From [Phormidium] sp. ETS-05 (GTDB lineage: Bacteria > Cyanobacteriota > Cyanobacteriia > Cyanobacteriales > Laspinemataceae): DNA of 56,792 nt. This document shows positions 18,903 to 40,179 of the stretch, piece after piece. Each line of letters starts with the position of its first letter. The first letter of the stretch is position 1. The stretch is from positions 3,564,787-3,621,578 of the forward strand of contig NZ_CP051168.1 in assembly GCF_016446395.1 (NCBI RefSeq), read 5' to 3'. A program made the translations under genes and the position numbers. The notes under the pieces were generated by a model, which did no database searches, was not told where the DNA came from, and saw nothing but the letters and a program-made list of their open reading frames with translations.

Positions 18903-21488
18903 GTGAAACAGCAAGATAACCGAATGCTTCACAGACCGATCGGCTCGCCAAATCTGCTCCCCTTAGTGCTGCTGTGGTTGGTGGCGGCGGTAGCCGATCG
19001 CCTGTGGTTTGCCCTAGACAAATCCATCCCCGGTTGGGACCAAGCGGACTATCTCACCGGCGCCCTCAACTACTGGCGTGCCCTCCAAACCCCCCAATGG
19101 CTAGACCCCCAGTGGTGGCAAAACCTATGGTTGCTCTCCTCAAAAATCCCACCCGGCACCTACATCGCCACCGCCGCCATCCACAACATCTTTGGCACCG
19201 GAGCCCATGCCGCCACCCTCATCAACCTATGCTTTAGCGCCATTCTATTATATGCAGTGTTTGGACTCGGCACCAAGCTATTTAACCCTACCGTCGGCTG
19301 GTGGGCAGCCCTATTCTGCCTCATCTTCCCCGGCTTACTCCTCATCCGCTTAGACTTCCTACTAGACTATCCCCTCACCGCCACTTGCACCCTCGCCTTT
19401 TACCTCCTCACCCTGTGGCGCAGCAGCGAACCATCAACCCGTACCGCATGGCTGCTGGCGATCGGATTTGGTTTCACCCTCGGAGCCGCCCTCATGGTGA
19501 AACAAACCGCCATCCTATTCTTACTCATCCCCTGCCTCTGGGCAATCATCACCACCATTCGCCGCCGCCAAGTAGGGGCAAACCCCCCGTGGTTGCCCCT
19601 AGTCCAACTCGGAATATCATTCCTCATCGCCTTAGTCATAACCTACCCCTGGTATCGCACCAACTGGCTACTCATACTCACCGGCAGCAAACGCGCCACC
19701 GTCGATGCTGCCATAGCCGAAGGAGACCCAGCCCTCAACACCCTAGCCGCCTGGACCCACTACCTGCAACTGCTGCCCGAGCAAATCTCCTGGCCCTTAT
19801 TGCTCATCCCCTTACTCGCAGCCCTCCTCTATGGCAGGAGGCGACCCCAAGCCGAACTAGAGTCACTGCAATGGCTGGCAGGTTTCTGGCTCGGAGCCTA
19901 TCTGCTCTGCAGCCTGAATCTTAATAAAGATTTTCGCTATGTGCTGCCCTACCTACCCATCATGGCCGTATTTCTAGCCCAGTGTTTCACCCTTTGGCCC
20001 GGTTCTTGGGGGCGATCGTTGCGCTTTGGCACAGTAGCAGCAGCAACATTGATGCTCATACCTTCAGTTTGGCCCACAGATAGTTTGGCAGAACTAGCAG
20101 GAACCCATCGCGCCTATACTGGACCATCGTGGCCACACGCCAAAGTAGTGCAAGCAGTAGTAGAAGCAGACCCCTACCTGCAAGCCAACATAGGCGTACT
20201 ACCTTCCACCCTAGAAGTGAACCAGCACAATATTAACTACTATGGCGCCCAGGCAGATTTTCAGGTGTATGGGCGACAAGTGGGGACGCGGAGCAAAGAT
20301 GTGGCAAAAGATGCGCGGTCTATGTCCTGGTTTATCACCAAAACTGGTCCCCAAGGTTCCGTCCCCTCGGCGCAGCCAGAGATGGTGACTGCAGTGGAAA
20401 AGTCTAGCGATTTCCGCCTATACCGCAGTTGGCCATTGCCAGATAATACCACCCTCAATCTCTACCGCCGCCAGTTCAGAAATGTGCGGGTTGTGCCATT
20501 GCCAGAAACACCCAGCCGCAACCAAGTGCAGTTAGAGCGGGTGATAGTACCGCCGCGAGTCCCCCCGGGAATACCAGTTCCCGTAACATATCAGTGGTTG
20601 GGACCGGCTGAAGAGTTGCAACAGGGTTTAGTGTTGTTGGACTGGGTGCCCGTGGGGGATAGTAGTAGTAGTGGCTGGTGGAGCGATCGAGCCATTGGTA
20701 GAGGCATCTTGCACCTGCAAAACCAACTCTCCCAAGCCCAAGTCATAGAAACCACCGCCATACTCCCCCCCGCCGCTACCCCACCGGGCAAATACACCCT
20801 CACCGCCACCTACCTGCACCGCCACAGCAAAACCACATATCCCCTGAAAATACCTCCAGTCACCCTAGAAATTGACCCCAACGCCTTACCCGCAGTCGCC
20901 CCAGAACCAGAACTAATCACCCAACTGCAAACATTAGCCACCGCTCTCCCCAACGGACCCAATGCCCTCGGTCCCGTATTCGACGAAGTAGGACGCATCG
21001 CCCAATATGACCCCACCCAAGACTACCTACGTCAAGCCGAATTAACCTTAGCCCACCGACTGCAACAACAGCCAAACAATCTATCCATTGCCTATAATTT
21101 GAGTTTGGCGAGAGTATTGCGGCGAGACGCCTCTGGGGCCGCCGCCGCATTACAGCGCGTCACCGAGCTAGACCCAAAAAACCCCTATGCCCATGCCTAT
21201 CTTGCCTTTGTTAATCTTTACGATTGGCGACCTTTTGCCGCCGCCGCTCCCCTCAAAACCGCCCTGGAACTAGCACCCCAGAGCCAAGAAATCCAAATTC
21301 TCGCCGCCGTGGGCGCCCTGATGCGGGGAAATCCCTTTCAAACCTGGCATTATCTCCAAGATTTTATCCCATCTGGGGTTAAATTAGTAGTTAAGTTTAT
21401 CCTGGGCGCATCGTTACTGTTGGTGATTGTGCTAATGACTATAATTATCACCAAATTTATGAAAAATAGCAGCAGTATCAAAATCTAA
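18903..21488 (+). CDS. Integral membrane glycosyltransferase-like protein (GT39/ArnT-PMT-like N-terminal region with about 10 transmembrane helices) with a C-terminal TPR-like region and a final transmembrane anchor
   Basis: N-terminus DRLWFALDKSIPGWDQADYLTGALNYWRAL followed by many hydrophobic helices. C-terminal TPR-like helices (AYNLSLARVL ... NPYAHAYLAFVNLY). GTG start. The palindromic element at 19577-19608 is embedded in frame. Confidence 0.5.
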   Translation: MKQQDNRMLHRPIGSPNLLPLVLLWLVAAVADRLWFALDKSIPGWDQADYLTGALNYWRALQTPQWLDPQWWQNLWLLSSKIPPGTYIATAAIHNIFGTGAHAATLINLCFSAILLYAVFGLGTKLFNPTVGWWAALFCLIFPGLLLIRLDFLLDYPLTATCTLAFYLLTLWRSSEPSTRTAWLLAIGFGFTLGAALMVKQTAILFLLIPCLWAIITTIRRRQVGANPPWLPLVQLGISFLIALVITYPWYRTNWLLILTGSKRATVDAAIAEGDPALNTLAAWTHYLQLLPEQISWPLLLIPLLAALLYGRRRPQAELESLQWLAGFWLGAYLLCSLNLNKDFRYVLPYLPIMAVFLAQCFTLWPGSWGRSLRFGTVAAATLMLIPSVWPTDSLAELAGTHRAYTGPSWPHAKVVQAVVEADPYLQANIGVLPSTLEVNQHNINYYGAQADFQVYGRQVGTRSKDVAKDARSMSWFITKTGPQGSVPSAQPEMVTAVEKSSDFRLYRSWPLPDNTTLNLYRRQFRNVRVVPLPETPSRNQVQLERVIVPPRVPPGIPVPVTYQWLGPAEELQQGLVLLDWVPVGDSSSSGWWSDRAIGRGILHLQNQLSQAQVIETTAILPPAATPPGKYTLTATYLHRHSKTTYPLKIPPVTLEIDPNALPAVAPEPELITQLQTLATALPNGPNALGPVFDEVGRIAQYDPTQDYLRQAELTLAHRLQQQPNNLSIAYNLSLARVLRRDASGAAAALQRVTELDPKNPYAHAYLAFVNLYDWRPFAAAAPLKTALELAPQSQEIQILAAVGALMRGNPFQTWHYLQDFIPSGVKLVVKFILGASLLLVIVLMTIIITKFMKNSSSIKI

Positions 21489-21760
21489 ATGTCACTTGTC
21501 ATTTGTCCTTTGTCACTTGTCATTTGTCCCTTGTCCTTTGTCACTTGTCATTTGTCCCTTGTCACTTGTCCCTTGTTCGCTTGTATCAATAAACAAAGGA
21601 CGAAGGACAAAGGACAAAGCCTGCCCTGAGCCTGTCGAAGGGGACAAATGACCAATGACCAATGACCAATGACAAATGACAAATGACCAATGACAAAGGA
21701 CTAATGACAAATGACCAAGGACAAAGGACAAATGACCAATGACCAATGACAAAGGAACAA
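21488..21760. repeat. Dyad-symmetric heptamer repeat block (TTTGTCA-type arm, central CTTGTTCGCTTGTATCAATAAACAAA core, GGACAAA/TGACCAA-type arm)
   Basis: The left arm is the reverse complement of the right arm. The same central core recurs at 47869-47905. Confidence 0.85.
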
Positions 21761-21765
21761 GTTTT

Positions 21766-22050
21766 ATGTCTTTACCTCCCGCAGTTGCCGAAGTTCTCCT
21801 AAAACTGGCCAAAGATACTGCTTTAGACCTGAAAACCAAACTAGCAGAAACTGCCCCTAACGATAAAATCAAGGCAGACCCGCGTTATCTCCCAGCAATT
21901 GCTGCCTACGCCGGGGGGGAAACCGACGGCAAGGAGCTAAGCCAAACCATGATGAAATTGCTCTGGGAGTGGCAGGCACCCAAAATCGCCCTTAAGTGGG
22001 CAGAAATAGCAGAAATATGGGATAAAAAAATAATTGGTTTGGGCTATTGA
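21766..22050 (+). CDS. Small hypothetical protein (about 94 aa)
   Basis: An ATG at 21766 with AAGGA 11 nt upstream. The track's upstream extension lies inside the repeat block. The stop overlaps the next gene's start (TTGA). Confidence 0.45.
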   Translation: MSLPPAVAEVLLKLAKDTALDLKTKLAETAPNDKIKADPRYLPAIAAYAGGETDGKELSQTMMKLLWEWQAPKIALKWAEIAEIWDKKIIGLGY

Positions 22051-25843: not shown

Positions 25844-25924
25844 TTGGCTCTACCGGATATAATAAAAAGTTGAATTTTCCTGAGTCTGGGGCAATCATCA
25901 CCCGATTGTTACTCGGCTCCATCC

Positions 25925-26075
25925 AATCTTATCACTAAAAAAGGTTTGTAGTTGGGCTTTAGCCCAAAAAAAGGTTCGTAGTTGGGCTTCAGCCCAAAAT
26001 TCGGTTTGTAGTTGGGCTTCAGCCCAAAAAAAGGTTCGTAGTTGGGCTTTAGCTCAAAAAAAGGTTTGTACATTT
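25925..26075. repeat. Five tandem copies of a 27-28-bp unit, each carrying a GGGCTTyAGCCC mini-hairpin
   Basis: aaaaaaggtt(t/c)gtagttgggctt(t/c)agccc x5, intergenic between two minus-strand genes. The 83-aa ORF across it is a repeat translation. Confidence 0.85.
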
Positions 26076-26156
26076 TTGACTTACCCCTACCGGAATACAT
26101 CTTTTGTGGGGGGCGAACCTCGATTCGCCCCTTCTGTGCTTTGGGTATCTCTTGCC

Positions 26157-27317: not shown

Positions 27318-27364
27318 GGCAAATTATCTGAAGCACCCTCTATTTTATCTGATTTTAGCATTTT

Positions 27365-27450
27365 TTACTGGTTATTTGTCACTGGTGATTTGTCATTTGT
27401 CCTTTGTCATTTGAGGCAGAACAAGTGACAAAGGACAAATGACAAAGGAC
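27365..27450. repeat. Dyad-symmetric heptamer repeat block
   Basis: tttgtcactggtgatttgtcatttgtcctttgtcatttgaggcagaacaagtgacaaaggacaaatgacaaaggacaaa. Confidence 0.85.
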
Positions 27451-27459
27451 AAACTGCAA

Positions 27460-28332
27460 TTATGGCTGGGTGGTGATGCCGTAAAGCTGGCAGATTTGCA
27501 CTAGCTGCTGTTGGAGCCGATCGCGCAGGTTCTGCGGGGATATTACCAGACATTGCTGGGCTTGGGGCATCACTTCCCGGATAAACCAGTAGGTGTTAGA
27601 GATTTTCTTGACTACTCGCAAGACTTGCCCGGAGTCTGGCAACCATTCGGTGAACTCATCTTCTGATTTTATTCGCGCCGCATAGGCAAAAGCTAGGCGA
27701 TCGAATAAGTGCATTTCCACCCGCAGCGAATCCATATGGGACCGCCAAGGTCGCTGGATGGGGGCGACGCCTGCGGTGACGATGCGATCGAGCCGCAAAC
27801 TCCAGTTATGGATTAATTCGGGCAAATCCAGATTGCCTTCGGTTTCTTCGCACCAACAATCGAGATATTGTCCTCCTTCGTGGAGGTTAATTTGGGCATG
27901 GCGGACCGTGAAGGTCCAGGGGCGACCGGTGGCGTCTTGATAGAAGAGGCGAAACGGCTGCTGGCGGCGGATGTAGCCATCAATTTCCTCCCGCCAGGGG
28001 GGCGGGGGATTTCCCACGAAGCGTTCCATTTCTTGGCGCATGGGCCATGAGGTTTCGTGGCGTTCTAGGAGCAGCTTGGCTACTACCTGGGCCTCGGCGA
28101 GCTTCCCCAGGTCCGTGAGTGCGCGGACACATTGGGCGAGAACGTCGAGGCGACTGGTGGGCCAGTCGTTATTGGGGGCGAGGGATAGCTGCTTCCGGGC
28201 AATGGCTTGCACCAGTTTGGAAATGTTGGGTCGATCGCCCCAAGTCATCCCCAATTCCAGGGCAATCGCTTCTAGCTGCTCCTTGTCTGACTGTGATAGA
28301 GATAGCGTTACTGTCTGACCCTTGCGACTCAT
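27460..28332 (-). CDS. WYL-domain transcriptional regulator, divergent from cas3' (CRISPR-associated regulator)
   Basis: N-terminal DNA-binding-like region. The C-terminus has the WYL-domain signature ...GQYLDCWCEETEGNLDLPELIHNWSLRLDRIV (the RLDRI motif). Its position mirrors WYL regulators found upstream of type I-D operons. Confidence 0.6.
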   Translation of the reverse strand: MSRKGQTVTLSLSQSDKEQLEAIALELGMTWGDRPNISKLVQAIARKQLSLAPNNDWPTSRLDVLAQCVRALTDLGKLAEAQVVAKLLLERHETSWPMRQEMERFVGNPPPPWREEIDGYIRRQQPFRLFYQDATGRPWTFTVRHAQINLHEGGQYLDCWCEETEGNLDLPELIHNWSLRLDRIVTAGVAPIQRPWRSHMDSLRVEMHLFDRLAFAYAARIKSEDEFTEWLPDSGQVLRVVKKISNTYWFIREVMPQAQQCLVISPQNLRDRLQQQLVQICQLYGITTQP

Positions 28333-28454: not shown

Positions 28455-30635
28455 ATGGGAGATTACTACTGCACCCTCAAGCCAGTTTATTCCTGCCCCG
28501 CCACTAAGTTGCCCGCAGGAGTCAAACTGCCTCCTGGCTGGACTTTAGCTTGGCACCAGGCAGCCACCTTAGAGGCAGTGCGCGACCCGAATATCGATGT
28601 AATTATCAATATAGCCCTGACGGGGGATGGTAAAAGTCTATCCGCTTATCTGGACAGTATGCAAGGACACAGCTACGCGCTGGGACTTTATCCCACCAAC
28701 GAGCTGGCGCGGGACCAGGAGGGGCAGGTGAGAAGATATATCGAGGAATTCCAGCCACCTGGAGAACCGCGAGTGTCCCGGTTGAGCGGCCCGGAATTAG
28801 AAATTTATGCGGAAAATGAGGGATTAAGGAAAGCAGCAGCATTGGATTCTAGGTCTTCAAATTCAGAAATTTTATTGACCAATCCCGATATTTTCCACTA
28901 CCTCCATCGTGGGGCTTACTTAACTCTTAATGATACCCCAGATAAGCTGTGGAACCGAATTGATAAGGATTTTAACCTGTTCATTTTTGATGAATTTCAC
29001 ACGGCGAGTGCGCCGCAAATTGCCGGTATAATCAACACCATGCTGCTGATTCGCTGTACTAATCGCCAGAAAAAATTTCTGCTGATGTCAGCGACGCCAA
29101 ATGACCGATTAATCGAGCGATTGCAAGCGGCGGGGTTTCGGTGTCGGATAATTAATCCCCTACAGGAGAGAAAATATCAGTTTCCTGATTCTGCGGGGCG
29201 GGAAAATGAGTTAAAATTGCAGAATTGGCGGCAAGTATCGCGGCAAATTTCTCTCGAGTTTATTTCTTTAGAACCGACGGCAAAGGCTACGGAAACTTGG
29301 GTGAAAGAAAATGGCAATCTGATTTTGCGTCATTTTCAGGAATATCCGGGGAGCAAAGGGGCAATTATCCTTAATTCTATTGCGGCGGTGAAGCGGTTAG
29401 TGCCGAGGTTGCGAGATTTGCTGTCACCCCACGGTTTGGTAGTGGGGGAGAATACGGGTTTATCGGGGAAGGGGGAGAAGGAGCGATCGCTCGCCGCTGA
29501 CCTCGTAATTGGCACCAGCACTATTGACGTGGGGGTAGATTTCAAAATTAATTTTCTCATATTTGAATCCGCCGATGGGGGTAACTTTATTCAGCGGTTG
29601 GGAAGGTTGGGACGACATGACGGCTACGAACGCAATGGGGAGAAAATTGCCTTTACCAATTTCACCGCTTATGCTTTAGTCCCTAATTTTTTATTGGAGC
29701 GGCTGTTTTTGGGGAATCATCCGCCCCTGCAGTCTGGGGGAATGTACGATCGGCCCTACTTCCACCAGCAAATCAGCGACAAATATCGCCAAATCAACGA
29801 CTTTGAGGGATATTACTCCCGCTGGGGGTTGGTGCAATCATGCTTGCTGGATTCCCAGCTCAAGCATATCACAATTAAAAAGGGCTACGCCAGCAGTCGG
29901 GAGGAATTTAGCACTACTTGCCAGCGGGTATTTAAGAAAAGTTTGGGTAAAGCATATGGACAGATAAAACAATGGAATCAGGAGTGGCAAGAGCTATCCG
30001 GTCAAAAAAGCACTTCTCCGATTGTTGAAGATGCTGCCAGTTTCCGGGGAACCAGTCCGCTCCAGTGTGGTTTATACGATTTGACTGAGGCAGCGGCGAC
30101 AGACCGGTTTAAAACCTATGATTTATCGGGAATTTTGAGCAATCTGGAAATTGAACCGATAACTAAAGTGGAGTTTATGCGCCTGCTAGAGGAGACGGAA
30201 AAAACCACGGGACAACCTATTGCTAAAGGTCGATTTAATGGCTGTCTCGCTTTTATGAAATTGCGCGCTTATCGAGAGGAGCGGTTCAACTGGCAATTTA
30301 CTTATGCAGGTGATTTGCGGCCATTAGCTAGTGCTTGGAGGGTGCAAGTGTTGACGGGGATTCAGGTTTGGCAACCGGAGAATTACTGGATTAATGAAAT
30401 TAATCAGCTCTTGAAAAAGCAAGGGTTAGTGAGCTACGTGGTCCGCCATCCGGTGGGGGAGGTACGATCGCGCCTCCGCCTCCCCATGCACTTTCAGATT
30501 TACCCCATGAGCGATCGAGCCAGTTTGCACGACCGCACGGCCCCCTACTCCGTAGCCTTCGGTCAGTCGGCCCTATTACTGGACACCCTGACCCACTGGC
30601 TCAAAAGCATAGGGGGCGATATATGGATTTCCTAG
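28455..30635 (+). CDS. cas3': Cas3' superfamily-2 helicase (type I-D; no HD domain)
   Basis: Walker A ALTGDGKS. DExH box LFIFDEFH. Helicase C-terminal motifs. No HD motif, which sits instead in the downstream large subunit, as expected for type I-D. Confidence 0.75.
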   Translation: MGDYYCTLKPVYSCPATKLPAGVKLPPGWTLAWHQAATLEAVRDPNIDVIINIALTGDGKSLSAYLDSMQGHSYALGLYPTNELARDQEGQVRRYIEEFQPPGEPRVSRLSGPELEIYAENEGLRKAAALDSRSSNSEILLTNPDIFHYLHRGAYLTLNDTPDKLWNRIDKDFNLFIFDEFHTASAPQIAGIINTMLLIRCTNRQKKFLLMSATPNDRLIERLQAAGFRCRIINPLQERKYQFPDSAGRENELKLQNWRQVSRQISLEFISLEPTAKATETWVKENGNLILRHFQEYPGSKGAIILNSIAAVKRLVPRLRDLLSPHGLVVGENTGLSGKGEKERSLAADLVIGTSTIDVGVDFKINFLIFESADGGNFIQRLGRLGRHDGYERNGEKIAFTNFTAYALVPNFLLERLFLGNHPPLQSGGMYDRPYFHQQISDKYRQINDFEGYYSRWGLVQSCLLDSQLKHITIKKGYASSREEFSTTCQRVFKKSLGKAYGQIKQWNQEWQELSGQKSTSPIVEDAASFRGTSPLQCGLYDLTEAAATDRFKTYDLSGILSNLEIEPITKVEFMRLLEETEKTTGQPIAKGRFNGCLAFMKLRAYREERFNWQFTYAGDLRPLASAWRVQVLTGIQVWQPENYWINEINQLLKKQGLVSYVVRHPVGEVRSRLRLPMHFQIYPMSDRASLHDRTAPYSVAFGQSALLLDTLTHWLKSIGGDIWIS

Positions 30636-30637
30636 AA

Positions 30638-30748
30638 AGTCAATCCCTGAAAGGGATTCAACACACTGGTTATCAGTGGGAGGGCATTAGCCCGCAAGAG
30701 CGATGTACGAAATTTCAATCCCTGAAAGGGGTTCGAGTAATTTTTGCC
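30638..30748 (-). repeat. Degenerate two-repeat CRISPR mini-array in antisense orientation inside the cas operon
   Basis: 30712-30747 tttcaatccctgaaaggggttcgagtaatttttg matches the reverse complement of the array repeat at about 30 of 36 positions. 30638-30664 keeps the core caatccctgaaagggattc (19 of 19). The 74-bp spacing equals one repeat-spacer period. Confidence 0.6.
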
Positions 30749-30789
30749 CTCCTCCTCAATCATACAGCAAAAAGTCCCAAAAATTTACT

Positions 30790-30826
30790 TGTCTTCATAC
30801 ATTGTTCTTTAGTGCTGTGTATAATG
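30790..30826 (+). promoter_or_regulatory. Putative extended -10 promoter (TGTGTATAAT) upstream of the small ORF and the toxin-antitoxin pair
   Basis: gtgctgtgtataatgg at 30813-30826. Lies inside the cas operon, downstream of cas3'. Confidence 0.4.
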
Positions 30827-30957
30827 GAGGTGGTGGCGTCAGCCCGCAAGAACAAAGGCCGAAATTCGTTGGAACTGGCTAAGTGCCCTTCTGACGCTTT
30901 CATACCTTACTAAGCCAGGAGCGACCACCATAACCATCCCGGTGGAGGTTCCCATCA

Positions 30958-31146
30958 ATGATTGCATATCAGCAACTAGAACTTTTTGATACTCGCCCTT
31001 ACACATCGGAGCAGCCTATTGCGATCGATAAGGAGGAAGAGCCAGTTACAGTGACTCCCCAAATGGAGCATAAACAGCTAGAACTCAATTTGTTTCCACA
31101 AAAGTCTCATAATACTCCCCTGGAGTGGTTGAGCTTAGCTGCCTAA
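30958..31146 (+). CDS. Small hypothetical protein (62 aa) with a strong SD (GGAGG, 9 nt spacer)
   Basis: MIAYQQLELFDTRPY... No known motif. Well-placed ribosome-binding site. Confidence 0.4.
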   Translation: MIAYQQLELFDTRPYTSEQPIAIDKEEEPVTVTPQMEHKQLELNLFPQKSHNTPLEWLSLAA

Positions 31147-31246
31147 TTTTCCAAGGGGGCTACGACTAAATTAAAATCAAAAGCCCCCTGGCTTCTCAAC
31201 ACTGTATATATGCAGTTTTTCATCTTGGTGAGTTCCAGAGTTTTCC

Positions 31247-31702
31247 ATGAATACAGGCGCAGAAAAATCAACAGATATCACTAATCTTGCCGTCCAACTG
31301 CCAGAAAAATTTCAACACCTAAAAATGCTGGTGCTGTTTGGTTCCAGAGCCAGAGGTGATTTTCGTCCAAACAGTGATTGGGACTTTGCCGCTGTCTATG
31401 ATGAAGCGATTTATCAAAATTTGACAGAAAATCCGTTTGCCGTGTTTGAAATTTCGGGAATTATCAGTAATTTGTTAAATATTCCCGAATCTAAAATAGA
31501 TGTGATAGACTTAGGTAGATGTTCCGCGCTTTTGGCTCACTACGTCGCTCGTGACGGTAAAGTTTTGTATGAACAAGAACCGGGGCAGTTTGAGCAATTC
31601 CGCCGTCAGGCCCTCAAGAGTCACGCTGAAATGAAAGCAACTTACCAAAGCCTGCGCGCCAAACTTGATGAGAGGTTGCAAAATTGGGGTTATGACGATT
31701 GA
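31247..31702 (+). CDS. Nucleotidyltransferase-domain protein (MntA-like antitoxin of a HEPN/MNT pair)
   Basis: LVLFGSRARGDFRPNSDWDFAAVYD is a minimal NTase fold (GS...D.D). The 3' end overlaps the next ORF by 11 nt. Confidence 0.6.
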   Translation: MNTGAEKSTDITNLAVQLPEKFQHLKMLVLFGSRARGDFRPNSDWDFAAVYDEAIYQNLTENPFAVFEISGIISNLLNIPESKIDVIDLGRCSALLAHYVARDGKVLYEQEPGQFEQFRRQALKSHAEMKATYQSLRAKLDERLQNWGYDD

Positions 31703-32132
31703 AAAATATATAGTTATAGCAAAAATAGATTTGATGGGCAAGTATTTGGAACGATTGCAGCGGTTTGAATCTGTGACCTTAGAACAATACCTCAATGATG
31801 GGGATATGCAGTTGGTCGTAGAAAGACTATTACAGCTAATCATTCAAATGGCGATCGACCTGAATCGGTACTTTTTGAAAGAATTAGGGATTGACCAACC
31901 AGAAACCAACGCTGAAGCATTCCACGCCGTCAGCCAATGTGGCATTATTCCCGATAATTTAGCCAAAAACATCGCTGGTTCGGTCAGCTTGCAAAATCGT
32001 TTGGTTCACGGCTATGATACAATCGATAGTGTTATCGTGCATGGTAGCATCAAGAAAGTATTGCAGTATTTTCCCATGTATCAAAAACAAGTCGGCAATT
32101 ATTTGGATTCTTTGGAGGACAAAAATGGCTAG
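31692..32132 (+). CDS. HepT-like HEPN-domain protein (DUF86-type toxin)
   Basis: The C-terminal NRLVHGYD fits the R-x2-H-x-Y part of the HEPN Rx4-6H motif. Size and tight coupling to the upstream NTase are typical of HepT/MntA modules. Confidence 0.5.
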   Translation: MTIEKYIVIAKIDLMGKYLERLQRFESVTLEQYLNDGDMQLVVERLLQLIIQMAIDLNRYFLKELGIDQPETNAEAFHAVSQCGIIPDNLAKNIAGSVSLQNRLVHGYDTIDSVIVHGSIKKVLQYFPMYQKQVGNYLDSLEDKNG

Positions 32133-35100
32133 AAAACGCAAGCAGCAAGATGAAGACAAGGAGCAGCAACTATCTTTATTTGATATTTTGCCCACGGCTC
32201 CCATATCTGAGCCGTCACATGATGATGATTCAGAGTTAGATGATAATGGGGATGATAGTGATTATGATGATGTGGAGCTTAGCTTTGACCCATCAGACCG
32301 AACCATAGAGCCAAAAGCGCCGGAGTTGCTGACGCTGAAACTGCTGCGAAAAGCTATTCTCGCGCAAAATCCCGATGATGCAGTGATGGAAGATTTCGCC
32401 GAATATGTGTTACCAAACCTGCTGCGAGTTGCCATCGCCGTCACCGCCAAAGGGGGTAAGTTTTTTGATAAACTTGATGCCCAGCGGCTGGCTGCAGGAA
32501 AGCCAAAACCTCGGCGTGATAATGCGGCTGACCAGTCGCTAAATAGTCATTTACTCAATGGCATATTTCCGGCGAATTTAATTGAGCAACGCCTGGAAAA
32601 GCTCGATACTACAGTGCGGCGATGCGTCAGGGAGCGGGAGCGCCGGTTACTAATTGCTGGGTTTATTCTCCACGACTTTGAGAAGTTTAATTATGACATA
32701 TTGCCCCAAATGCCCCAGAAATATCGGGACATTAGCAATAGCCAAAATCAGAAGATTCGGGACTTATCTGTGGCGGAACATCGGGAGATTGTGCAGGTCA
32801 TCGCTGATGAATTGCATCTGGGGCAGTTGATAGACCCGGAAAACCCAGAAGCATATCAGGAATATTTGGATGATTTGCTCGTTTTGGCGTATAATGCCCA
32901 GGTGCGGGAGGATACGAATTGGAATTTTTCGGTAGCGCACGGACTGCAGCCGGTATTGGACGATCGCACCCTCCGCTGTCTCGCTGCACTCACTTGCTTG
33001 GCAGATTCCTTTGCCTCAATTATCAAACACCCTCAAGATGCTGAACATAGGCGGTTTCAAGAACTATTACACAGTCTTAGTGATGGCCAACTAAAGCTAA
33101 GCTATCACGGCTTGACCGAAAATCGGGGAGTGTTGACAAACGCCGTGAATAACTCCCTCATCGAGGCTCACACCGCACTCAATACAAAAAACTGCACCTA
33201 CTATGAACCCCTGTTGTATTTGCCAACTGGTGTCATCTACTTGGCGCATAGAAATGCGCCACCAGTGCGGCTGGAAGACTGCCCCGAAAAAGTTGTCAGC
33301 CAGATTAAAAAACTCTGCGCCGGTCAGTTACGCGACAGACAAACCGGTTTTGGCCGCGATGGCAAAGGCATGAAATATGCCGAATATTATAACCTATTTT
33401 TTGACGATGTGGAGTTGATGCAAGTAGCTCTTAATGCCACCATGCGGATTTTGCCTAAAGGCAAATCTTCCGTAGCCCAAGACCGCAGCGACAATCTGAT
33501 AAAATTTCAGAAACAGGGGGTCTTACCCGCCGATTGGGATTTCCAGTTTGCCAACGATATCCGCATCGACCAACTGGCAGAATTTGGCGACCTAGTGAGC
33601 CGGAAAATTTGGGGCGATCGGGTCAGCAAAATTGAAAATTTCCGCAAACAAGACAAAAAAAATAAAAACCTGCCCCCAGTTCCCCCCTTGCAGATTATCG
33701 AAGAAGTTGCTAAACTATGGCAACTGTCGGATTATCTGCCCCAAATTCGGGAAATCCAGCGGCTGAATGAAAGGCTGAAGGAAAATAAGCTCAAAGGTAA
33801 CACTGGCGGCATACCCTACGAATGGTATTATTTAGCTGCCAAGTATCTAGAACGGCACCCAGGAGTTGAGGAGGTGCGGGAGATTTGCCAGCAAGCAATA
33901 GCACATATTGCCCAACTGATTCGACCCATCACCGCTCAGTATCAACTCCCCGATGGTTGGGAAGACTTGTGCCTATGGGTGCAGCGAGTTATCATACTCC
34001 CCAGCCAGCCAGAGTCCAACGCATCATTAGCAGTATTTGCCGATGAATTCCAGCGCTACATGATGGCGAAAAAATCTGGGCGAGGCAGGCAGTTAATCTG
34101 CTCAATTTCTCATTCCGCTTACACGGTGACAGAGCAAATGGAGTCAGCGGTTTTGTTTACCCCCCAGGTTTATACTAACAAACAAATGCTGGGAGGTTCT
34201 AACGCCAAGCGCAATATCTCCAGTATTGCCGGTATCGAGATGATGCTACGGCAAATCTTGATGAACCAAACCCAGGCGGTGGGCAAGAATTTTGAGGATG
34301 GCAAGTATCGTTATCTGTATTTCTATCCTACTTATTACTTCACCCCAGAAACTAACAAGTTTTTGCATCAAGCCTACACCGATATCGCCCAAACTCGTTT
34401 TACGCCTACTCTGCGCAATCACTTTATTAGCTCGGATTTGCAGGCAGATTTTACCAAAACCCGCTACCAAACTGTTGATAGTTTTTTGCTGGATGAAGCT
34501 ATTAAACCAGAAAAAGACCGCACATTTAAACTGTCTTATCCAGAAGACTTGCCCGTAACGTTTTACTTTATGGCACTGCCCACGCCGAAAAAAAGTAAAG
34601 ACCACAAACCCACGGATACGGAATCTTGGATTATGCCAGCTTGGTTGGCGTTTGCTTTCCCCATCATTATCGATGTGAAAACTGCGGTGTCTGAGTCTCC
34701 CATTCCGCCTTTTACTGATGGGGCGGAGTTTGAGGAAAGCGTATTTCTGGACAGTCCACCCCCAGCATTCCGGGTTTTGACCCAGCGCGATCGCTTCCGC
34801 ATTGACTACATCCTAGAAGGTTGGCAAGAAAACGGCAAGGAATATCCCTCACCTTTGAATGTCCTCACCGCCGCTTATGCCATTCATCTCGACGTGAATG
34901 CTCGCCAAGGCAAAAAAGGTTATGATGCCAACTGGGGTAAATTTGCCGAGTTAGCCACGGATTTTGAAACCAGCCCCCTCTCCGTATTTACTTATCTCAG
35001 TAAGTGGGGACGCCGCCAAGAAGCTGAAACCGCCAGCATTAAGAAAATTAAGCTCTATGCTTATCAATTTTACCCCTGTTTTGACCCCTACGTTCAATTT

Positions 35101-35631
35101 AAACCAGAATCGGAGGAATTAATTGTGGACGAAAAATCGCCATTACACCACCCCAAGCGATTGACCGAACTCTATCGCCAATTTTACCGAGCCAACAAGT
35201 TGTATAATCCTAAAGCTAACGCCGTGCTAAAACCCATTGATATTGCTGCCGATGTAATTCTCAAAGTTGACCCCTGTTTTTCGGGCGAAGCTCTCCCCGA
35301 TATGGTCGCTGCGGAAATCTGTAAACTGATGGATCGGGTTCACAGTTCCACCGCCGAAGGGCGTTGGGTATTTAAACGCGATGAACGAGAGCAAGAACGG
35401 GAAAAAATCGCCGAATTCGCTGCCTACTTTGTCCACGAGGTATTTGAGAATTCTTTTGGGGGCGATCGCGCCCGTTTAGCCGGACGACAACTAAACTACC
35501 TCCGCGACACCTGCGAATACCTGTATCGCTTAGAAAACGACAAAGAAATCCGCGCCAAAAAAGAACAATCCCCAGATAATGCGGAGGATAATTTTGACAA
35601 CGAAGAGGAAACAGAAGATGAAACACCATAA
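32125..35631 (+). CDS. cas10d: Cas10d large subunit (type I-D) with an N-terminal HD nuclease motif
   Basis: 1168 aa from the ATG at 32125 (GGAGGA SD), which overlaps the hepT stop. HD motif LIAGFILHDFEKF. Size and its position before csc2/csc1/cas6d are diagnostic of I-D. Confidence 0.7.
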   Translation: MARKRKQQDEDKEQQLSLFDILPTAPISEPSHDDDSELDDNGDDSDYDDVELSFDPSDRTIEPKAPELLTLKLLRKAILAQNPDDAVMEDFAEYVLPNLLRVAIAVTAKGGKFFDKLDAQRLAAGKPKPRRDNAADQSLNSHLLNGIFPANLIEQRLEKLDTTVRRCVRERERRLLIAGFILHDFEKFNYDILPQMPQKYRDISNSQNQKIRDLSVAEHREIVQVIADELHLGQLIDPENPEAYQEYLDDLLVLAYNAQVREDTNWNFSVAHGLQPVLDDRTLRCLAALTCLADSFASIIKHPQDAEHRRFQELLHSLSDGQLKLSYHGLTENRGVLTNAVNNSLIEAHTALNTKNCTYYEPLLYLPTGVIYLAHRNAPPVRLEDCPEKVVSQIKKLCAGQLRDRQTGFGRDGKGMKYAEYYNLFFDDVELMQVALNATMRILPKGKSSVAQDRSDNLIKFQKQGVLPADWDFQFANDIRIDQLAEFGDLVSRKIWGDRVSKIENFRKQDKKNKNLPPVPPLQIIEEVAKLWQLSDYLPQIREIQRLNERLKENKLKGNTGGIPYEWYYLAAKYLERHPGVEEVREICQQAIAHIAQLIRPITAQYQLPDGWEDLCLWVQRVIILPSQPESNASLAVFADEFQRYMMAKKSGRGRQLICSISHSAYTVTEQMESAVLFTPQVYTNKQMLGGSNAKRNISSIAGIEMMLRQILMNQTQAVGKNFEDGKYRYLYFYPTYYFTPETNKFLHQAYTDIAQTRFTPTLRNHFISSDLQADFTKTRYQTVDSFLLDEAIKPEKDRTFKLSYPEDLPVTFYFMALPTPKKSKDHKPTDTESWIMPAWLAFAFPIIIDVKTAVSESPIPPFTDGAEFEESVFLDSPPPAFRVLTQRDRFRIDYILEGWQENGKEYPSPLNVLTAAYAIHLDVNARQGKKGYDANWGKFAELATDFETSPLSVFTYLSKWGRRQEAETASIKKIKLYAYQFYPCFDPYVQFKPESEELIVDEKSPLHHPKRLTELYRQFYRANKLYNPKANAVLKPIDIAADVILKVDPCFSGEALPDMVAAEICKLMDRVHSSTAEGRWVFKRDEREQEREKIAEFAAYFVHEVFENSFGGDRARLAGRQLNYLRDTCEYLYRLENDKEIRAKKEQSPDNAEDNFDNEEETEDETP

Positions 35632-35637: not shown

Positions 35638-35800
35638 GAGATTGTAGGGTGGGCATTGCCCACACCGAGAGTTCAAACATCCTGAATCCAAATTATCTGG
35701 TGGGCAATGCCCACCCTACGATAAACTGCTGGGCAATGCCCACCCTACTTTAAACCAGACACAGACCAATTTGGACAAGGCAATGCCCTGTCCCTACAAA
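35638..35800. repeat. Three to four copies of the palindromic element GTAGGGTGGGCAwTGCCCACCCTAC
   Basis: 35642-35663, 35698-35722, 35730-35750 and a degenerate copy at 35775-35797. The same family occurs at 39117-39146, 55486-55515 and a degenerate copy at 1877-1930. Confidence 0.75.
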
Positions 35801-35818: not shown

Positions 35819-36832
35819 ATGGCTTTTTTAACCACCGTCGATGCCAAATATTTTCACACAGAAATCCCCTACAAACCGATGGGTAAATACGCCCACTTTC
35901 TCACCGTGCGCGTCACCGAATCTTATCCCCTATTTCAAACTGACGGCGAACTAAATAAAGCACGAGTCCGCGCCGGAATCCAAGACCCCACACCTATCAG
36001 CCGCCTTACCATGTTCAAGCGCAAACAGTCCACCCCAGAGCGGTTAGTAGGGCGGGAACTGCTGCGCAACTACGAACTAATGACCGCAGAAGAATGCGAA
36101 TATAACGTAAAATTCGCAATGGATAACCCCGACTGCATTATTTACGGCTTCGCTATTGGTGAATCCGGCTCAGAAAAATCCAAAGTGGTAGTAGATACCG
36201 CCTTCTCCATCACTCCTTTTGACGCCGCTCACGAAACTTTCACCCTCAACGCCCCCTATGAAAATGGCACAATGGCATCAAAGGGAGAAGGAGATAAAAA
36301 ACTGGGCGAAATCACCAGCCGCATCAACCAGCAAGACCACATCAAGCCACAAGTATTTTTCCCCAGCATCGTCACCCTGAAAGACCCCACCGAAGCAGGA
36401 TTTTTATACGTTTTCAATAACATCTTGCGCACCCGCCACTACGGCGCCCAAACCACCCGCACCGGGCGGGTTCGTAACGAATTAATTGGCGTCGTATTTG
36501 CCGACGGAGAAATTACCAGCAATCTCCGCTGGTCTCAGGCAATTTACGACGACATAAAAGCCAAAAACCTGCTGGGTTCTTTAGACCCCCTCAATGAAGA
36601 TGACGTTATCCAATCAGCCCAAAACACGATCGTAGCCCTCATGGCGGAAGAATTTATCGTTCACAGTGATTTTGTCGGCGACACCTTTGCCCCTTTGCTT
36701 CAAGAAGTGAAAGCTCTCACCAAAAGCGAAGCGGGAATCCGGGCGATTTTGCAGCAAGCCGATGCGGAAGCCAAAGCCTATGCTAAAAAGCACATCAAAC
36801 CGAAAAAAGCAGCCACAGCAGGGGAAAAATAA
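35819..36832 (+). CDS. csc2: Cas7d (Csc2) backbone subunit
   Basis: 337 aa, the typical Csc2 size. Position between cas10d and csc1. N-terminus MAFLTTVDAKYFH... is characteristic of the family. Confidence 0.65.
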   Translation: MAFLTTVDAKYFHTEIPYKPMGKYAHFLTVRVTESYPLFQTDGELNKARVRAGIQDPTPISRLTMFKRKQSTPERLVGRELLRNYELMTAEECEYNVKFAMDNPDCIIYGFAIGESGSEKSKVVVDTAFSITPFDAAHETFTLNAPYENGTMASKGEGDKKLGEITSRINQQDHIKPQVFFPSIVTLKDPTEAGFLYVFNNILRTRHYGAQTTRTGRVRNELIGVVFADGEITSNLRWSQAIYDDIKAKNLLGSLDPLNEDDVIQSAQNTIVALMAEEFIVHSDFVGDTFAPLLQEVKALTKSEAGIRAILQQADAEAKAYAKKHIKPKKAATAGEK

Positions 36833-37536
36833 TGGCAATTATTCATCGCTGTATGGTGGAACTACACGACAGTCTGTATTTTGCGACACGGGAAATTGGG
36901 CGGCTCTATGAAACTGAAGCCATCCTGCACAATTATGCTCTCTGTTACGCCCTCGGATTGGTGGATAACGCCGCCTATACTACCCAAGTAGCGGAAGAGG
37001 ATTCCTGCCGGTATTTTTGCGCGGAACAAGTGCCAAAATATGAACAGCATTTAACTGCCTTAAACCAAGCAGGCATTTACATCACGCCGGGACGCCCTGT
37101 CTCCCACGCTACCACCCTCACCACTTGGAAGTATGCCAACAACAACTATCACGTGGAGATGGAAAAAACCCAGAAAAACATTCCCAGTTTTGGCCGCAAC
37201 AAAGAAATAGCCCCAGAAAGCCAGTTTGAATTCTTCGCTATTTCCCCACAGCGGCTCAAATTCCCCCGCTGGATCCGCTTGGGCAAATGGGCGAGCAAAG
37301 CTGAGGTAGCAATTTTGGCCACTGAGGAGGTGAAACCATCGGCCAAAGAACAAGAGTTTACCTTTCCCTATCCCCTGAATCCTCTAGATGTGATGTTTAC
37401 CCATCAAATTTTCAGTTACGATACCATTAATATGCCCCCCGTTAGCCTGATTAGAAATGTAAAAATGCGCGGGCACTGCTATTATTGGGAAGAGCTGAAA
37501 CTGAAAATTCCCGCGATGATGCAATATCGGTTTTGA
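36832..37536 (+). CDS. csc1: Cas5d (Csc1) subunit
   Basis: 234 aa. 1-nt overlap with csc2. Conserved gene order. Confidence 0.6.
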   Translation: MAIIHRCMVELHDSLYFATREIGRLYETEAILHNYALCYALGLVDNAAYTTQVAEEDSCRYFCAEQVPKYEQHLTALNQAGIYITPGRPVSHATTLTTWKYANNNYHVEMEKTQKNIPSFGRNKEIAPESQFEFFAISPQRLKFPRWIRLGKWASKAEVAILATEEVKPSAKEQEFTFPYPLNPLDVMFTHQIFSYDTINMPPVSLIRNVKMRGHCYYWEELKLKIPAMMQYRF

Positions 37537-37614: not shown

Positions 37615-38484
37615 ATGCCACACAGTCTCGTCCTCAACATCCTACCCAAATCCCCCATCCCCCCCCAGTTTCTCACTGGGAGGCACTTGCACGCCCTTTT
37701 CCTCACCTTGGTTAGTGCTGTAGATAAAGATTTAAGCGACTACCTCCACAACCAAACTAATGATAAAGCCTTTACCTTGAGTCCTTGGCAAATTGCCGGA
37801 CAAAGGCGGTTTGAACATGGCATTTATTCCCTGGAATGGGAACATCAACAACCTATCCCCGCCGGGACGCAATGCTGGTGGCGCATCTCTCTGCTAGATG
37901 ATAGTTTATTCAGTCAACTGACCAAACTTTGGCTCAATCTTAATCCCCAACATCCTTGGCATTTGGGGCCAGCAGATTTGCTGATTACCAGCATTTTGGG
38001 AACACCGCAACCGGCGCAACCTTGGGCGAGTTTTGCTCCCTACGCTACCTTGTATGAAATGGCTTCGGAAACCGATCGGCAAATTGCTTTTAATTTTACC
38101 ACACCTGCCACTTTTCGGCAAGGGGAAAGTGATATGGCTCTCCCCACCAGGGAAGCAGTGTTTCACAGTCTGATTCACCGGTGGAATAAATACAGCGGCA
38201 TTGAGTTTTCCCATGATTTGAGTGAAAAAATTTTTCCCAGCTTTTTCAATATCCGCACCGCTGTAGTCAGCAACTACAAGAGCAAGTTAATTGGCTGTAT
38301 CGGTCAAATTAGCTACCGAATTTTGGGGGCTGCTGACACTTTGGCGATTAAGCAAATTAATGCTTTAGCTGATTTCGCTCTTTACGCGGGAGTGGGGCGG
38401 AAAACCCCGATGGGGATGGGGATGGTGCGGCGAGTTGATCCGAATCAAAAAACATCTAAACAGTCAGGACAAAATTATGCTTGA
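37615..38484 (+). CDS. cas6: Cas6d repeat-processing endoribonuclease
   Basis: 289 aa. C-terminal glycine-rich loop GVGRKTPMGMGMV is typical of Cas6. Position before cas4-cas1-cas2. Confidence 0.7.
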   Translation: MPHSLVLNILPKSPIPPQFLTGRHLHALFLTLVSAVDKDLSDYLHNQTNDKAFTLSPWQIAGQRRFEHGIYSLEWEHQQPIPAGTQCWWRISLLDDSLFSQLTKLWLNLNPQHPWHLGPADLLITSILGTPQPAQPWASFAPYATLYEMASETDRQIAFNFTTPATFRQGESDMALPTREAVFHSLIHRWNKYSGIEFSHDLSEKIFPSFFNIRTAVVSNYKSKLIGCIGQISYRILGAADTLAIKQINALADFALYAGVGRKTPMGMGMVRRVDPNQKTSKQSGQNYA

Positions 38485-39070
38485 TATTGATTATATTCCC
38501 ATTGCGGCGCTGAATCAATATGCTTACTGCTCTCACCGCTGCTGGCGGATGTTTTGCGCTGGGGAATTTGTGGATAATCATTATACCATTGAAGGCACGA
38601 GTTTGCATAGTCGGGTTCACAGTTTTGGCGAAGGTATCCGGGAAGATGTGGAGCAAATTCGCGCCATTTGGCTGAAGTCGGAGCAGTACAAGTTGATTGG
38701 TAAATCGGATTTGATTGAAACTGTGGATGGGGAGTGGTATCCCGTGGAATATAAACGGGGACGCAAGGGAGAATGGGATAATGATGAGTTGCAGGTAGCA
38801 GCCCAGGCTTTATGTTTGGAAGAAATGACGGGTAAAACCATTACTGGCGGCTATATTTATTATGCCAGTTCTTACCAGCGGCAGTTGGTGGAAATTTCCC
38901 CAGAATTGCGGGGGCAGACTCTGGCAACTATTGCGGAAGTTGCCAAGTTATTCGCGACGGGGGCAATGCCGAAACCTACTTATAATCCCCGTTGTCGTGG
39001 GTGCAGTTTGTCTGCTGCTTGTTTGCCCCAAGCTGCCGCGAAAATTGGTCGTTATCAAGAATTGAATTAG
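38477..39070 (+). CDS. cas4: Cas4 (RecB-like nuclease with a four-Cys cluster)
   Basis: Start at the ATG at 38477, overlapping the cas6 end. N-terminal Cys (YAYCSHRCW) and C-terminal CRGCSLSAAC form the Fe-S cluster ligands. Confidence 0.8.
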   Translation: MLDIDYIPIAALNQYAYCSHRCWRMFCAGEFVDNHYTIEGTSLHSRVHSFGEGIREDVEQIRAIWLKSEQYKLIGKSDLIETVDGEWYPVEYKRGRKGEWDNDELQVAAQALCLEEMTGKTITGGYIYYASSYQRQLVEISPELRGQTLATIAEVAKLFATGAMPKPTYNPRCRGCSLSAACLPQAAAKIGRYQELN

Positions 39071-39146
39071 TCATTGGTCATTGGTCATTAGTCCTTTGTC
39101 TTTTGTCTGATAAAAGTAGTAGGTGGGCATTGCCCACCCGACAAAA
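39061..39146. repeat. TTGGTCA/TTTGTCT heptamer tract plus a copy of the GTAGGTGGGCATTGCCCACCC palindrome
   Basis: tcattggtcattggtcattagtcctttgtcttttgtc ... agtaggtgggcattgcccacccgac. Confidence 0.8.
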
Positions 39147-39174: not shown

Positions 39175-40179
39175 ATGGGAACTGTTTATGTGGTGCAAGA
39201 TGATGCTTTTGTGGGAAAAACTGATGAACGGTTGACGGTAAAAGTCGGGAAAGATAAGCCCCTAGAGGTGCCTTTACTGATGATAGATGGGCTGGTTGTG
39301 TTGGGACGAGCGACGATTTCTCCCGCAGCTATTCTGGAGTTACTAGAGCGGCATATTCCGGTATCTTTTCTCAGTCAGAATGGGCGTTATTTGGGAACGC
39401 TAGAACCAGAGTTGAGTAAAAATATTTTTGTGAGAGCTGCTCAGTGGCAAGCTGCGGGTCATTCTGAACTGGCGGTGGGGGCTGTGCGGGGTTTTGTGCG
39501 GGGTAAGTTGAAGAATTACCGCCATATTTTGCAGCGGCGAGAGCGGGAAAATGCAGACCTGAATTTAGCTGATGGGATTGCTAAGTTAGAATCGGCGATA
39601 TCGCCGATTAATGCTACTGATAATATTGACAGTCTCCGGGGATTAGAGGGTGCTGGTAGCGCGGCTTATTTTGGCTGTTTTAATCAGCTAATTCGGGGGG
39701 ATGGGTTTGAATTTACTGCAAGGCGGCGGCGTCCTCCTACTGACCCAGTAAATGCGCTGTTGAGTTTTGGTTATGCTTTGCTGCGCCATGATGTGCAAGG
39801 GGCGGTAAATACGGTGGGTTTTGACCCCTATTTGGGCTATCTCCATTACCAGCGTTATGGTCGCCCTTCTTTGGCGCTGGATTTAATGGAGGAGTTTCGG
39901 CCTTTGGTGGTAGATACAATTGTTTTAGCTGCGATTAATAAGCGGACTCTGACCGTGAATGATTTCGTTACCGAGCCTTTGAGCGGTGCGGTTTCTTTGA
40001 CTCAAGAAGGATTGCGCACTTTTCTGCGGCTTTATCAGGAGAAAAAGCAGTCTAAGTTTAAGCATCCGGTGATGGGGCGGCAATGTACTTATCAAGAAGC
40101 CTTTGAGATTCAAGGGCGCTTGTTGGCGAAGTATTTGATGGGGGAAACTGACCAATATCCGCCCCTGGTTTTGAAATAA
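39175..40179 (+). CDS. cas1: Cas1 integrase
   Basis: 334 aa. N-terminal beta-sandwich MGTVYVVQDDAFVGKTDERL. Conserved catalytic-region residues (E...H...E pattern). Sits immediately upstream of cas2. Confidence 0.88.
   Translation: MGTVYVVQDDAFVGKTDERLTVKVGKDKPLEVPLLMIDGLVVLGRATISPAAILELLERHIPVSFLSQNGRYLGTLEPELSKNIFVRAAQWQAAGHSELAVGAVRGFVRGKLKNYRHILQRRERENADLNLADGIAKLESAISPINATDNIDSLRGLEGAGSAAYFGCFNQLIRGDGFEFTARRRRPPTDPVNALLSFGYALLRHDVQGAVNTVGFDPYLGYLHYQRYGRPSLALDLMEEFRPLVVDTIVLAAINKRTLTVNDFVTEPLSGAVSLTQEGLRTFLRLYQEKKQSKFKHPVMGRQCTYQEAFEIQGRLLAKYLMGETDQYPPLVLK

Follow-up and report, generated by a model that had tools for sequence, protein, structure and literature searches.

A degenerate antisense mini-array beside cas3' in a cyanobacterial type I-D CRISPR-Cas locus: a probable gene for a crRNA-like regulatory RNA

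We have analyzed a degenerate CRISPR mini-array of two repeats and one spacer in a 56,792-nucleotide (nt) stretch of [Phormidium] sp. ETS-05 DNA (contig NZ_CP051168.1, positions 3,564,787 to 3,621,578; hereafter the window), which contains a type I-D CRISPR-Cas locus. The mini-array lies antisense to cas3', just past its stop codon, and we estimate at roughly 80% the probability that it belongs to the type I-D system as the gene for a CRISPR RNA (crRNA)-like regulatory RNA, similar in kind to CreA, CreR or crlRNA. Comparison of the sequence with that of its relatives reveals the repeats, a conserved position, a selected strand, a seed match flanked by a protospacer-adjacent motif (PAM), as well as covariation of spacer and target, so that every sequence-level property of the regulatory mini-array class is present. 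Transcription, Cas6 processing, loading, repression and the extent of the repressed operon are what we infer, and only infer, from these. Elements of this kind were described in 2023, and the locus is an additional example. What appears to be undescribed is a PAM-less second copy of the spacer; we regard the finding as real and functional-looking, its interest resting mainly on this second site.

Antisense repeat copies and the selected strand

The repeat of the two CRISPR arrays in the window (CCCGAAATTTACCCGAATCCCTTTCAGGGATTGAAAC on the + strand) is present in 73 exact copies and 3 copies with one mismatch (arrays 16901-17835 and 40817-45442), while the degenerate terminal repeat of the former array, at 17869, matches 31 of 37 positions. 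The repeat-spacer units of the arrays are 71-82 nt long. In order to locate further copies, the reverse complement of this repeat was slid without gaps along the whole window. Two antisense copies were found, psiR-B (30/37) and psiR-A (22/37; coordinates of all features are given in Table 1), and no other site, the terminal 17869 copy excepted, exceeded 22/37. The exact 20-nt core TCAATCCCTGAAAGGGATTC is kept by psiR-A at 30640-30659; allowing at most two mismatches, this core occurs only in the arrays and in the two antisense copies, with none expected from 100 shuffles. The cores are spaced by 75 nt (30640 to 30715), which equals one array unit, and psiR-A starts 2 nt past the cas3' stop codon. 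The end of psiR-B (ATTGAAAT) matches 7 of the 8 positions of the 8-nt 5' handle, and in the predicted fold of the precursor both hairpins form, that of psiR-A being strong. Both copies are oriented opposite to both arrays, and no leader homology was found at the mini-array; in the window, the 300-nt leader duplicate (D10) occurs only at 16557 and 40473. A sequence-only reading of this DNA had already recognized a single spacer between two leaderless antisense repeats located between cas3' and the toxin-antitoxin (TA) genes mntA and hepT, and all of this holds. Its perfect core in the weaker copy and its one-unit spacing hold as well, with the lengths corrected from 19 to 20 nt and from 74 to 75 nt. 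It had also called an open reading frame (ORF) across the element (30623-30913) probably spurious, which is reasonable, given that this ORF has no Pfam match and that neither its frame nor its start codon is kept in relatives.

The element is not a functional CRISPR array, having no leader, degenerate repeats, and a single inherited spacer that is homologous across genera. A search of 30500-31300 against Rfam in E-value mode returned only noise and a sub-threshold match of psiR-A to CRISPR-DR5 (24.5 bits vs a gathering score of 40 bits); no known RNA family in Rfam explains this region.

Relatives were drawn from 78 loci encoding Cas3' relatives (51 genomes and 27 metagenomes), all of the named genome loci being cyanobacterial except for two metagenome-assembled genomes. 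Their Cas3' proteins are 61-72% identical to that of the window, apart from the nearest relative, a metagenome contig (L052), at 91%. Cores (AATCCCTnnnAGGGATT) were counted within 350 nt past the cas3' stop codon in 70 loci, comprising the window and the 69 relatives with downstream DNA. Two cores were found in 39/70, one in 12/70, three in 1/70 and none in 18/70. The first core usually lies 2-10 nt past the stop codon and the second 65-85 nt further. The two-copy element thus occupies the same place, in the same orientation, in relatives whose Cas3' is only 61-71% identical, from which it follows that it predates anything peculiar to this genome and is under selection. Homologues of the psi-spacer itself were found in L001, L012, L037, L041 and L052. 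A sub-clade (L015, L022, L023, L028, L029, L035, L046 and L068) has, in place of the two-copy element, a single different repeat-like unit, AGTCGTGTTTCAATACCTCAGAGGCCTT, about 48 nt past the cas3' stop codon, which may be a repeat unit standing alone, or a mini-array in which the second repeat can no longer be recognized.

Conservation around the hairpins differs between their two sides. Across 93 copies, the 4-5 nt that precede the hairpin on the + strand carry 1.2-1.5 bits and have the sequence [G/A]TTTC, complementary to the GAAAC/T in which the crRNA 5' handle ends, whereas the 10 nt past the hairpin carry at most 0.3 bits. Conservation on the handle side only argues that selection acts on the element as read from the minus strand, where ATTGAAAC/T comes after the hairpin, and this combination is required for Cas6 processing and Cascade loading.

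The same observation bears on a role of the + strand, in which the hairpins would sit on the cas3' mRNA as a 3'-end stabilizer, a terminator or a Cas6d docking site, and would regulate cas3' or uncouple it from the downstream genes. Such a role would account for the placement of psiR-A 2-10 nt past the cas3' stop codon in essentially all loci, and the stem (AATCCC/GGGATT) is self-complementary, so the sense transcript folds too. We nevertheless consider it unlikely as the explanation of the element. The conservation outside the stem lies 3' of the hairpin on the minus strand (the ATTGAAAC/T handle), with approximately 0 bits in the + strand 3' flank; the loop is antisense relative to a Cas6 substrate; no T-run follows either hairpin; and the spacer-target matches described below would be left unexplained. 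A sense-strand role could also coexist with a guide RNA function. The link to Cas6 drawn by the sequence-only reading was therefore probably right in spirit, its proposal of a Cas6 site acting on the sense cas mRNA being disfavored by the flanks.

A PAM-flanked match in the adjacent promoter

The feature that most directly points to a regulatory crRNA-like RNA gene, and which the sequence-only reading had missed, is a PAM-flanked partial match to the spacer in the adjacent promoter. This candidate target, type-1 (TTCATACATTGTTCTTTAGTGCT), lies 82 nt beyond psiR-B and matches psi-spacer positions 1-3, 5-9, 11, 13-16, 19 and 21-23. Over the seed, 12 of the 15 informative positions match (positions 1-18, every sixth omitted), a score reached by none of 300 shuffled spacers (maximum 10). 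It is the best of 5277 GT-flanked sites on both strands of the whole window, the next best scoring 10. GTN is the established type I-D PAM (PMC10212523). When the best seed match was sought without constraint on flank or strand in 35 loci, a GTN flank was present in 29 of the 34 sites scoring at least 11/15, where about 6% would be expected. In alignment A1, consisting of the window and its four family members, the PAM and the following TTC are invariant. Where the spacer differs between loci, the target differs with it (TACAT in the window, CGATG in L041 and CCCAC/ACACAC in L001), and mismatches favor positions 6 and 12.

The site overlaps a conserved TATAAT box on the + strand, and a -10 box is also conserved on the minus strand ahead of psiR-B, where L001, L041, L037 and L012 have TATAAT, TATAAA, TACACT and TACAAT, respectively, at the aligned position. 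The predicted arrangement is a pair of divergent promoters serving the guide and the downstream genes, respectively, the candidate Cascade site covering the latter. In the AAATAC spacer family (L007, L010, L014, L016, L024, L036, L061 and L064), the best PAM-flanked seed match is on the minus strand, 71-97 nt beyond psiR-B, besides the + strand site. The guide of this family may address two sites of opposite orientation, one of which could overlap the mini-array promoter and so provide autoregulation.

These matches, together with conservation in relatives, make it very unlikely that the element is a non-functional fossil, whether what is left of a decaying CRISPR array in inverted orientation or a repeat inserted ectopically, without a useful product. 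Degeneracy of one repeat (22/37), the missing leader and the related loci that have no element are what a fossil would predict, and Shmakov et al. 2023 (PMC10120712) deem many stand-alone repeats degraded, especially in type III loci. A fossil would not be expected to keep its position and orientation in relatives with 61-71% Cas3' identity, to conserve hairpin and handle while the remainder varies freely, or to show a PAM-flanked seed match with spacer-target covariation. The suggestion of the sequence-only reading that the element is left over from the rearrangement that duplicated the leader is contradicted by the same shared position, and the similarity, which it had allowed might be absent from relatives, is carried by orthologous loci.

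If this mini-array encodes a regulatory RNA, it is hypothesized that the minus-strand promoter (TATGAT) transcribes psiR-B, the psi-spacer and psiR-A, and that Cas6d would cleave both hairpins to yield a product of about 75 nt (30719 to 30645) comprising the 5' handle AUUGAAAU, a 38-nt guide and the 3' hairpin of psiR-A. Cas10d, Csc2 and Csc1 would load this guide RNA, with Csc2, Csc1 and Cas6d as the carrier and processing proteins. The loaded complex would recognize the GTC PAM and pair with the adjacent site over no more than about its first 16-23 nt; since pairing is partial, we propose that the complex would stay bound and that Cas3' would not be recruited to cut. It would thereby cover the divergent + strand promoter and repress the 62-amino-acid (aa) ORF, mntA-hepT, via operon coupling cas10d, and probably the genes downstream of cas10d. 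The likely start of cas10d overlaps the hepT stop codon, which points to a single operon whose genes are probably co-transcribed, and with cas10d in the same operon as the cargo, repression would reach the Cascade genes as well as the cargo. The predicted outcome is negative feedback on Cascade, along with a guard role in which the cargo would be de-repressed when Cascade is lost or blocked by an anti-CRISPR.

Several points weigh against this interpretation. To our knowledge, expression, processing and repression have been reported for no I-D mini-array. The element is dispensable, as judged from the 18/70 related loci without it. The psiR-B stem contains a C:A mismatch. The seed in the window is imperfect at two normally pairing positions, 4 (a G:T wobble) and 10; that of L052 likewise has two mismatches (4 and 7), and many relatives have a perfect 11-nt seed, so binding to the promoter DNA may be weaker here. 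A generic consensus promoter scan called neither of the two proposed promoters, both of which are drawn from conserved -10 boxes only, and the + strand promoter has a good -10 box and no recognizable -35 box. Finally, the published I-D mini-arrays (Shmakov et al. 2023, PMC10120712) are known from computation only.

The least probable of the explanations considered is a classical CreTA, in which the mini-array would repress a small RNA toxin (CreT) directly downstream and not protein cargo or cas genes: the guide gene and the target promoter are divergent and adjacent as in CreTA, and about 125 nt of conserved non-coding sequence (roughly 30832-30957) separate the promoter from the first ORF, but no CreT-like feature (a strong Shine-Dalgarno sequence and a start codon, then rare codons) was seen in 30826-30957, the predicted fold of the downstream stretch is no better than that of shuffles (z = -0.95), and a conserved ORF, the protein TA pair and cas10d follow directly. 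A structure hiding a ribosome-binding site in the 5' untranslated region (UTR) was also predicted; it is no better than shuffles (z = -0.95) and was not used as evidence.

A second, PAM-less copy of the spacer

Within the whole window, the psi-spacer has its best non-self match in a second, same-sense copy, type-2, which agrees at 24 of 36 positions and includes an exact block of 11 nt (positions 13-23). Its seed is poor, and its score in the window was reached by none of 300 shuffled spacers. In the window's family, type-2 starts at approximately the predicted +1 of the repressed transcript, and the 36-nt type-1 footprint and the adjacent 36-nt type-2 together form a 72-nt imperfect inverted repeat centered on the -10 box. 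An equivalent was found in 18 of the 25 loci analyzed first, 116-225 or 457-542 nt beyond psiR-B; these represent four spacer families that probably share one ancestor, so that the 18 loci are not 18 independent observations. Type-2 was found again in 11 of the 14 metagenome loci analyzed. Its score was unreached by 300 shuffled spacers in 16 of the 25 loci.

The matches between spacer and type-2 are periodic. Grouped by position modulo 6 (positions 4-33, 18 loci), the match frequency is 0.26 for remainder 0 and 0.78, 0.76, 0.80, 0.94 and 0.97 for remainders 1 to 5, respectively. The value for every sixth base is at chance level, and the dip recurs in each of the four families (0.28, 0.27, 0.40 and 0.08, vs 0.84-0.86 elsewhere). 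Many pairing positions carry two to four different matched nucleotides across loci, which indicates that changes have been compensated. Among mismatched pairing positions, cases that would still pair with the guide as G:U or G:T outnumber the reverse transitions 27 to 9, although these counts lack phylogenetic independence. In L052, the relative at 91%, two spacer positions (10 and 26) differ from those of the window, and each of the two changes gives a match to type-2.

Pairing with a period of six bases, in which every sixth position is left free, is the geometry that a Cas7 filament imposes on its guide, which suggests that Cascade loaded with this guide pairs with the type-2 complement as well. 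Having neither PAM nor seed, type-2 should not be opened as duplex DNA. The I-D Cascade binds complementary single-stranded RNA (ssRNA) at about 11 nM whatever the flank, and also single-stranded DNA (PMC9123187, PMC10212523). We tentatively propose, as a possibility that we rate at clearly less than even, that the I-D Cascade would also bind at type-2, either to the mRNA (nascent or mature) or to the non-template strand of the transcription bubble. If this were true, type-2 would be a natural RNA-level (or single-strand) target of a type I system, alongside repression at the promoter.

Other origins of the type-2 pattern were considered and rejected. Coding constraint does not fit variable positions with a period of 6 rather than 3, and the ORFs that overlap type-2 keep neither their frame nor their start codon from locus to locus. 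Recent duplication or gene conversion would leave unexplained why chance identity is confined to every sixth base in all four families, and a protein operator would not yield a six-base period with free sixth positions. A decayed three-unit array was suggested by the offset between spacer and type-2 (152 nt, or 2 x 76); nothing repeat-like is present at 30788-30825, and the offset is 116-542 nt elsewhere. The possibility that type-2 is the spacer of a second mini-array was considered on account of a weak repeat-like stretch, AATCTCAACCCCC, that follows it on the + strand in the AAATAC and GAATAA families; no hairpin flanks type-2 in any family, making Cas6 processing unlikely. It is possible that type-2 originated through duplication of the mini-array.

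Type-2 is not obligatory, since lineages with a replaced spacer (L009, L011, L019/L073, L043 and L074) keep the PAM-flanked site without it. Its gene context also varies. In the window it lies in the 5' UTR, while in the GAATAA and AAATAC families it follows a 65-74-aa ORF and precedes a second PAM-flanked site with a TATAAT of its own. In these two families, type-2 is inside a conserved block of about 160 nt bounded by the inverted repeat GAGGGAAGCT ... AAGCTTCCCTC (6757-6916 in L044, with equivalents in L007, L010, L014, L016, L036, L045, L050 and L051). The block also holds a second, GTT-flanked seed site overlapping TATAAT, such as GTTGAATAAGTCACTTATAAT in L051, and possibly represents a further promoter under regulation or else a structured RNA.

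Locus context and relation to described systems

In Shmakov et al. 2023 (10.1101/2023.03.03.530964, PMC10120712), repeat-like sequences are reported beside cas3 in I-D loci, with mini-arrays antisense to cas3, a better preserved upstream repeat, and targets in the cas10d promoter; in two I-D clades, TA and regulator cargo separates the mini-array from cas10d, and it is the promoter of this cargo that contains the target. The mini-array analyzed here resembles these elements in having two repeat-like units between cas3 and cas10d on the strand opposite to cas3, a better preserved upstream repeat, a spacer seed that matches a PAM-flanked site in the promoter of the cargo, and a conserved position with a variable spacer and target. 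That work is computational, and its text, which goes into no locus-level detail, does not mention a second, PAM-less full-length site or an mRNA-level target. CreR has been shown for types I-B, I-E and V-A, with I-D elements listed from a manual search (10.1101/2023.03.10.532045). Like CreR, the element has a degenerate repeat-spacer-repeat guide with partial complementarity, through which the effector represses (here, is predicted to repress) its own cas promoter, the cas link being provided here by coupling of cas10d to the repressed operon through the overlap of the hepT stop and cas10d start. Unlike in CreR, the cas genes are separated here from the promoter by TA and small-ORF cargo. In CreTA (Cheng et al. 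2021, PMC8501985), CreA is likewise a degenerate two-repeat mini-CRISPR in a cas locus, the guide of which represses an adjacent toxin promoter and makes the cell depend on Cascade. The CreT toxin is a small RNA, whereas the genes predicted to be repressed here encode proteins (the 62-aa ORF and MntA/HepT). The property that type-2 would need, flank-independent binding of ssRNA by the I-D Cascade, was described in vitro (Schwartz et al. 2022, PMC9123187).

The 62-aa ORF has homologues in all five members with the same spacer type, the loci listed above for the psi-spacer. They share invariant QLELFD and QLELDLFP motifs and a C-terminal LAA, and the ORF matched no Pfam or NCBIfam family. Both motifs fit the bacterial beta-clamp-binding consensus QL[SD]LF, and the LAA end resembles an ssrA degradation tag; we speculate that the product could be a short-lived clamp-binding toxin or competitor. 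The N-termini of Cas10d read M-(A/E)-K-K-R...QQLSL[FL][DE] (32125-32190 on the + strand of the window) in 32 of the 79 sequences scanned, which were those of the 78 loci and the window. The pentapeptide in this N-terminal stretch is clamp-binding-like and follows the same pattern as both motifs of the small ORF; our literature search found no link of Cas10d to the sliding clamp.

Table 1. Genes, repeat copies, predicted promoters and candidate targets in the window
Feature	Position	Strand	Remarks
Second CRISPR array	16901-17905	+	13 repeats and a degenerate terminal copy
WYL/WCX-type regulator	27460-28332	-	
cas3' helicase	28455-30635	+	PF00270 and PF22590; stop codon abutted by the opposite-strand mini-array
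psiR-A, downstream repeat	30637-30673	-	More degenerate copy, 22/37; stem-loop GAATCCCTTTCAGGGATT intact
psi-spacer (guide part)	30674-30711	-	TTCGTACATCGCTCTTGCGGGCTAATGCCCTCCCACTG; 38 nt between the repeat copies, array-like spacing
psiR-B, upstream repeat	30712-30748	-	30/37 to the array repeat; one mismatch in the core; hairpin in RNA fold
Predicted -10 box, mini-array promoter	30759-30764	-	TATGAT; about 11 nt ahead of psiR-B; start site predicted at about 30752
GTC, type I-D PAM (GTN) of candidate DNA target	30791-30793	+	Invariant (G162 T163 C164) in alignment A1
type-1 target, partial protospacer	30794-30816	+	Full 36-nt footprint would reach 30829
Putative -10 box, cargo/cas10d promoter	30820-30825	+	TATAAT; inside the type-1 Cascade footprint; position conserved in A1
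type-2 element, same-sense PAM-less psi-spacer copy	30828-30863	-	AAT flank; complement on the mRNA-sense strand after the -10 box
Conserved 62-aa ORF	30958-31146	+	First gene past the candidate targeted promoter
mntA (nucleotidyltransferase antitoxin, type VII TA)	31247-31702	+	NF047752, E = 1e-24; PF18765
hepT (HEPN RNase toxin, type VII TA)	31665-32132	+	NF047751, E = 4e-30
cas10d	ORF 32014-35631, likely start 32125 (MARKRK...)	+	TIGR03174, E = 2e-293; N-terminus aligned with orthologues
csc2 (cas7d)	35819-36832	+	PF18320, E = 7e-119
csc1 (cas5d)	36832-37536	+	Profile match; csc1/cas6d families matched: PF19308 / PF10040, TIGR03159
cas6d	37615-38484	+	
cas4	38435-39070	+	
cas1, cas2	ORFs 39175-40179, 40197-40559	+	Assigned from position and size only
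Main CRISPR array	40817-45442	+	63 repeats

Other repeated sequences were observed in the window. The 3' end of cas2 and the 300-nt leader are duplicated with 94-95% identity (16455-16856 vs 40367-40772); the duplicated leader precedes the 13-repeat array, which has no cas genes of its own and ends beside two minus-strand tRNA-Phe genes (17981-18053 and 18125-18204). Many arrays of 7-nt tandem repeats, of TTTGTCC, TTGTCAC or ATTGTCA types and the complements GGACAAA or TGACAAA, are present (2500-2830, 5230-5520, 13680-13800, 21480-21780, 27360-27460, 39070-39110, 40170-40280, 47810-47990, 50360-50550, 52230-52390 and 55520-55600). They often form inverted pairs around intergenic regions, such as 21480-21590 vs 21630-21780, and one pair, at 40170-40280, overlaps two ORFs, that of cas1 at its 3' end and that of cas2 at its start. 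Between two minus-strand ORFs, 25913-26092 contains five to six tandem 30-nt units (GGTTTGTAGTTGGGCTTTAGCCCAAAAAAA), each of which contains a GGGCTTTAGCCC hairpin followed by an A-run. Within the cas operon, a 29-nt element with the palindrome GGTGGGCAATGCCCACC has four copies, at 35641-35749 and 39115-39143, occupying the cas10d-csc2 and cas4-cas1 intergenic regions.

For type I-D, this class of element has so far been known only from computation, and the locus contributes to it a clear example that is well conserved. It is directly testable, since 330 base pairs hold the guide gene, the PAM, the target, both divergent promoters and the cargo. Where degenerate antisense repeats lie beside cas3' in cyanobacterial I-D loci, the annotation should be that of a regulatory RNA gene and not of array debris or an ORF. 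The cargo, consisting of the HepT RNase toxin with MntA and a small ORF, suggests that the system may guard itself against loss or anti-CRISPR inhibition. We know of no natural RNA target reported since 2022 for ssRNA binding by the I-D Cascade. If the PAM-less site is a real single-strand target, it would give this binding a physiological role and would make the I-D Cascade a type I effector that regulates at both the DNA and the RNA level.

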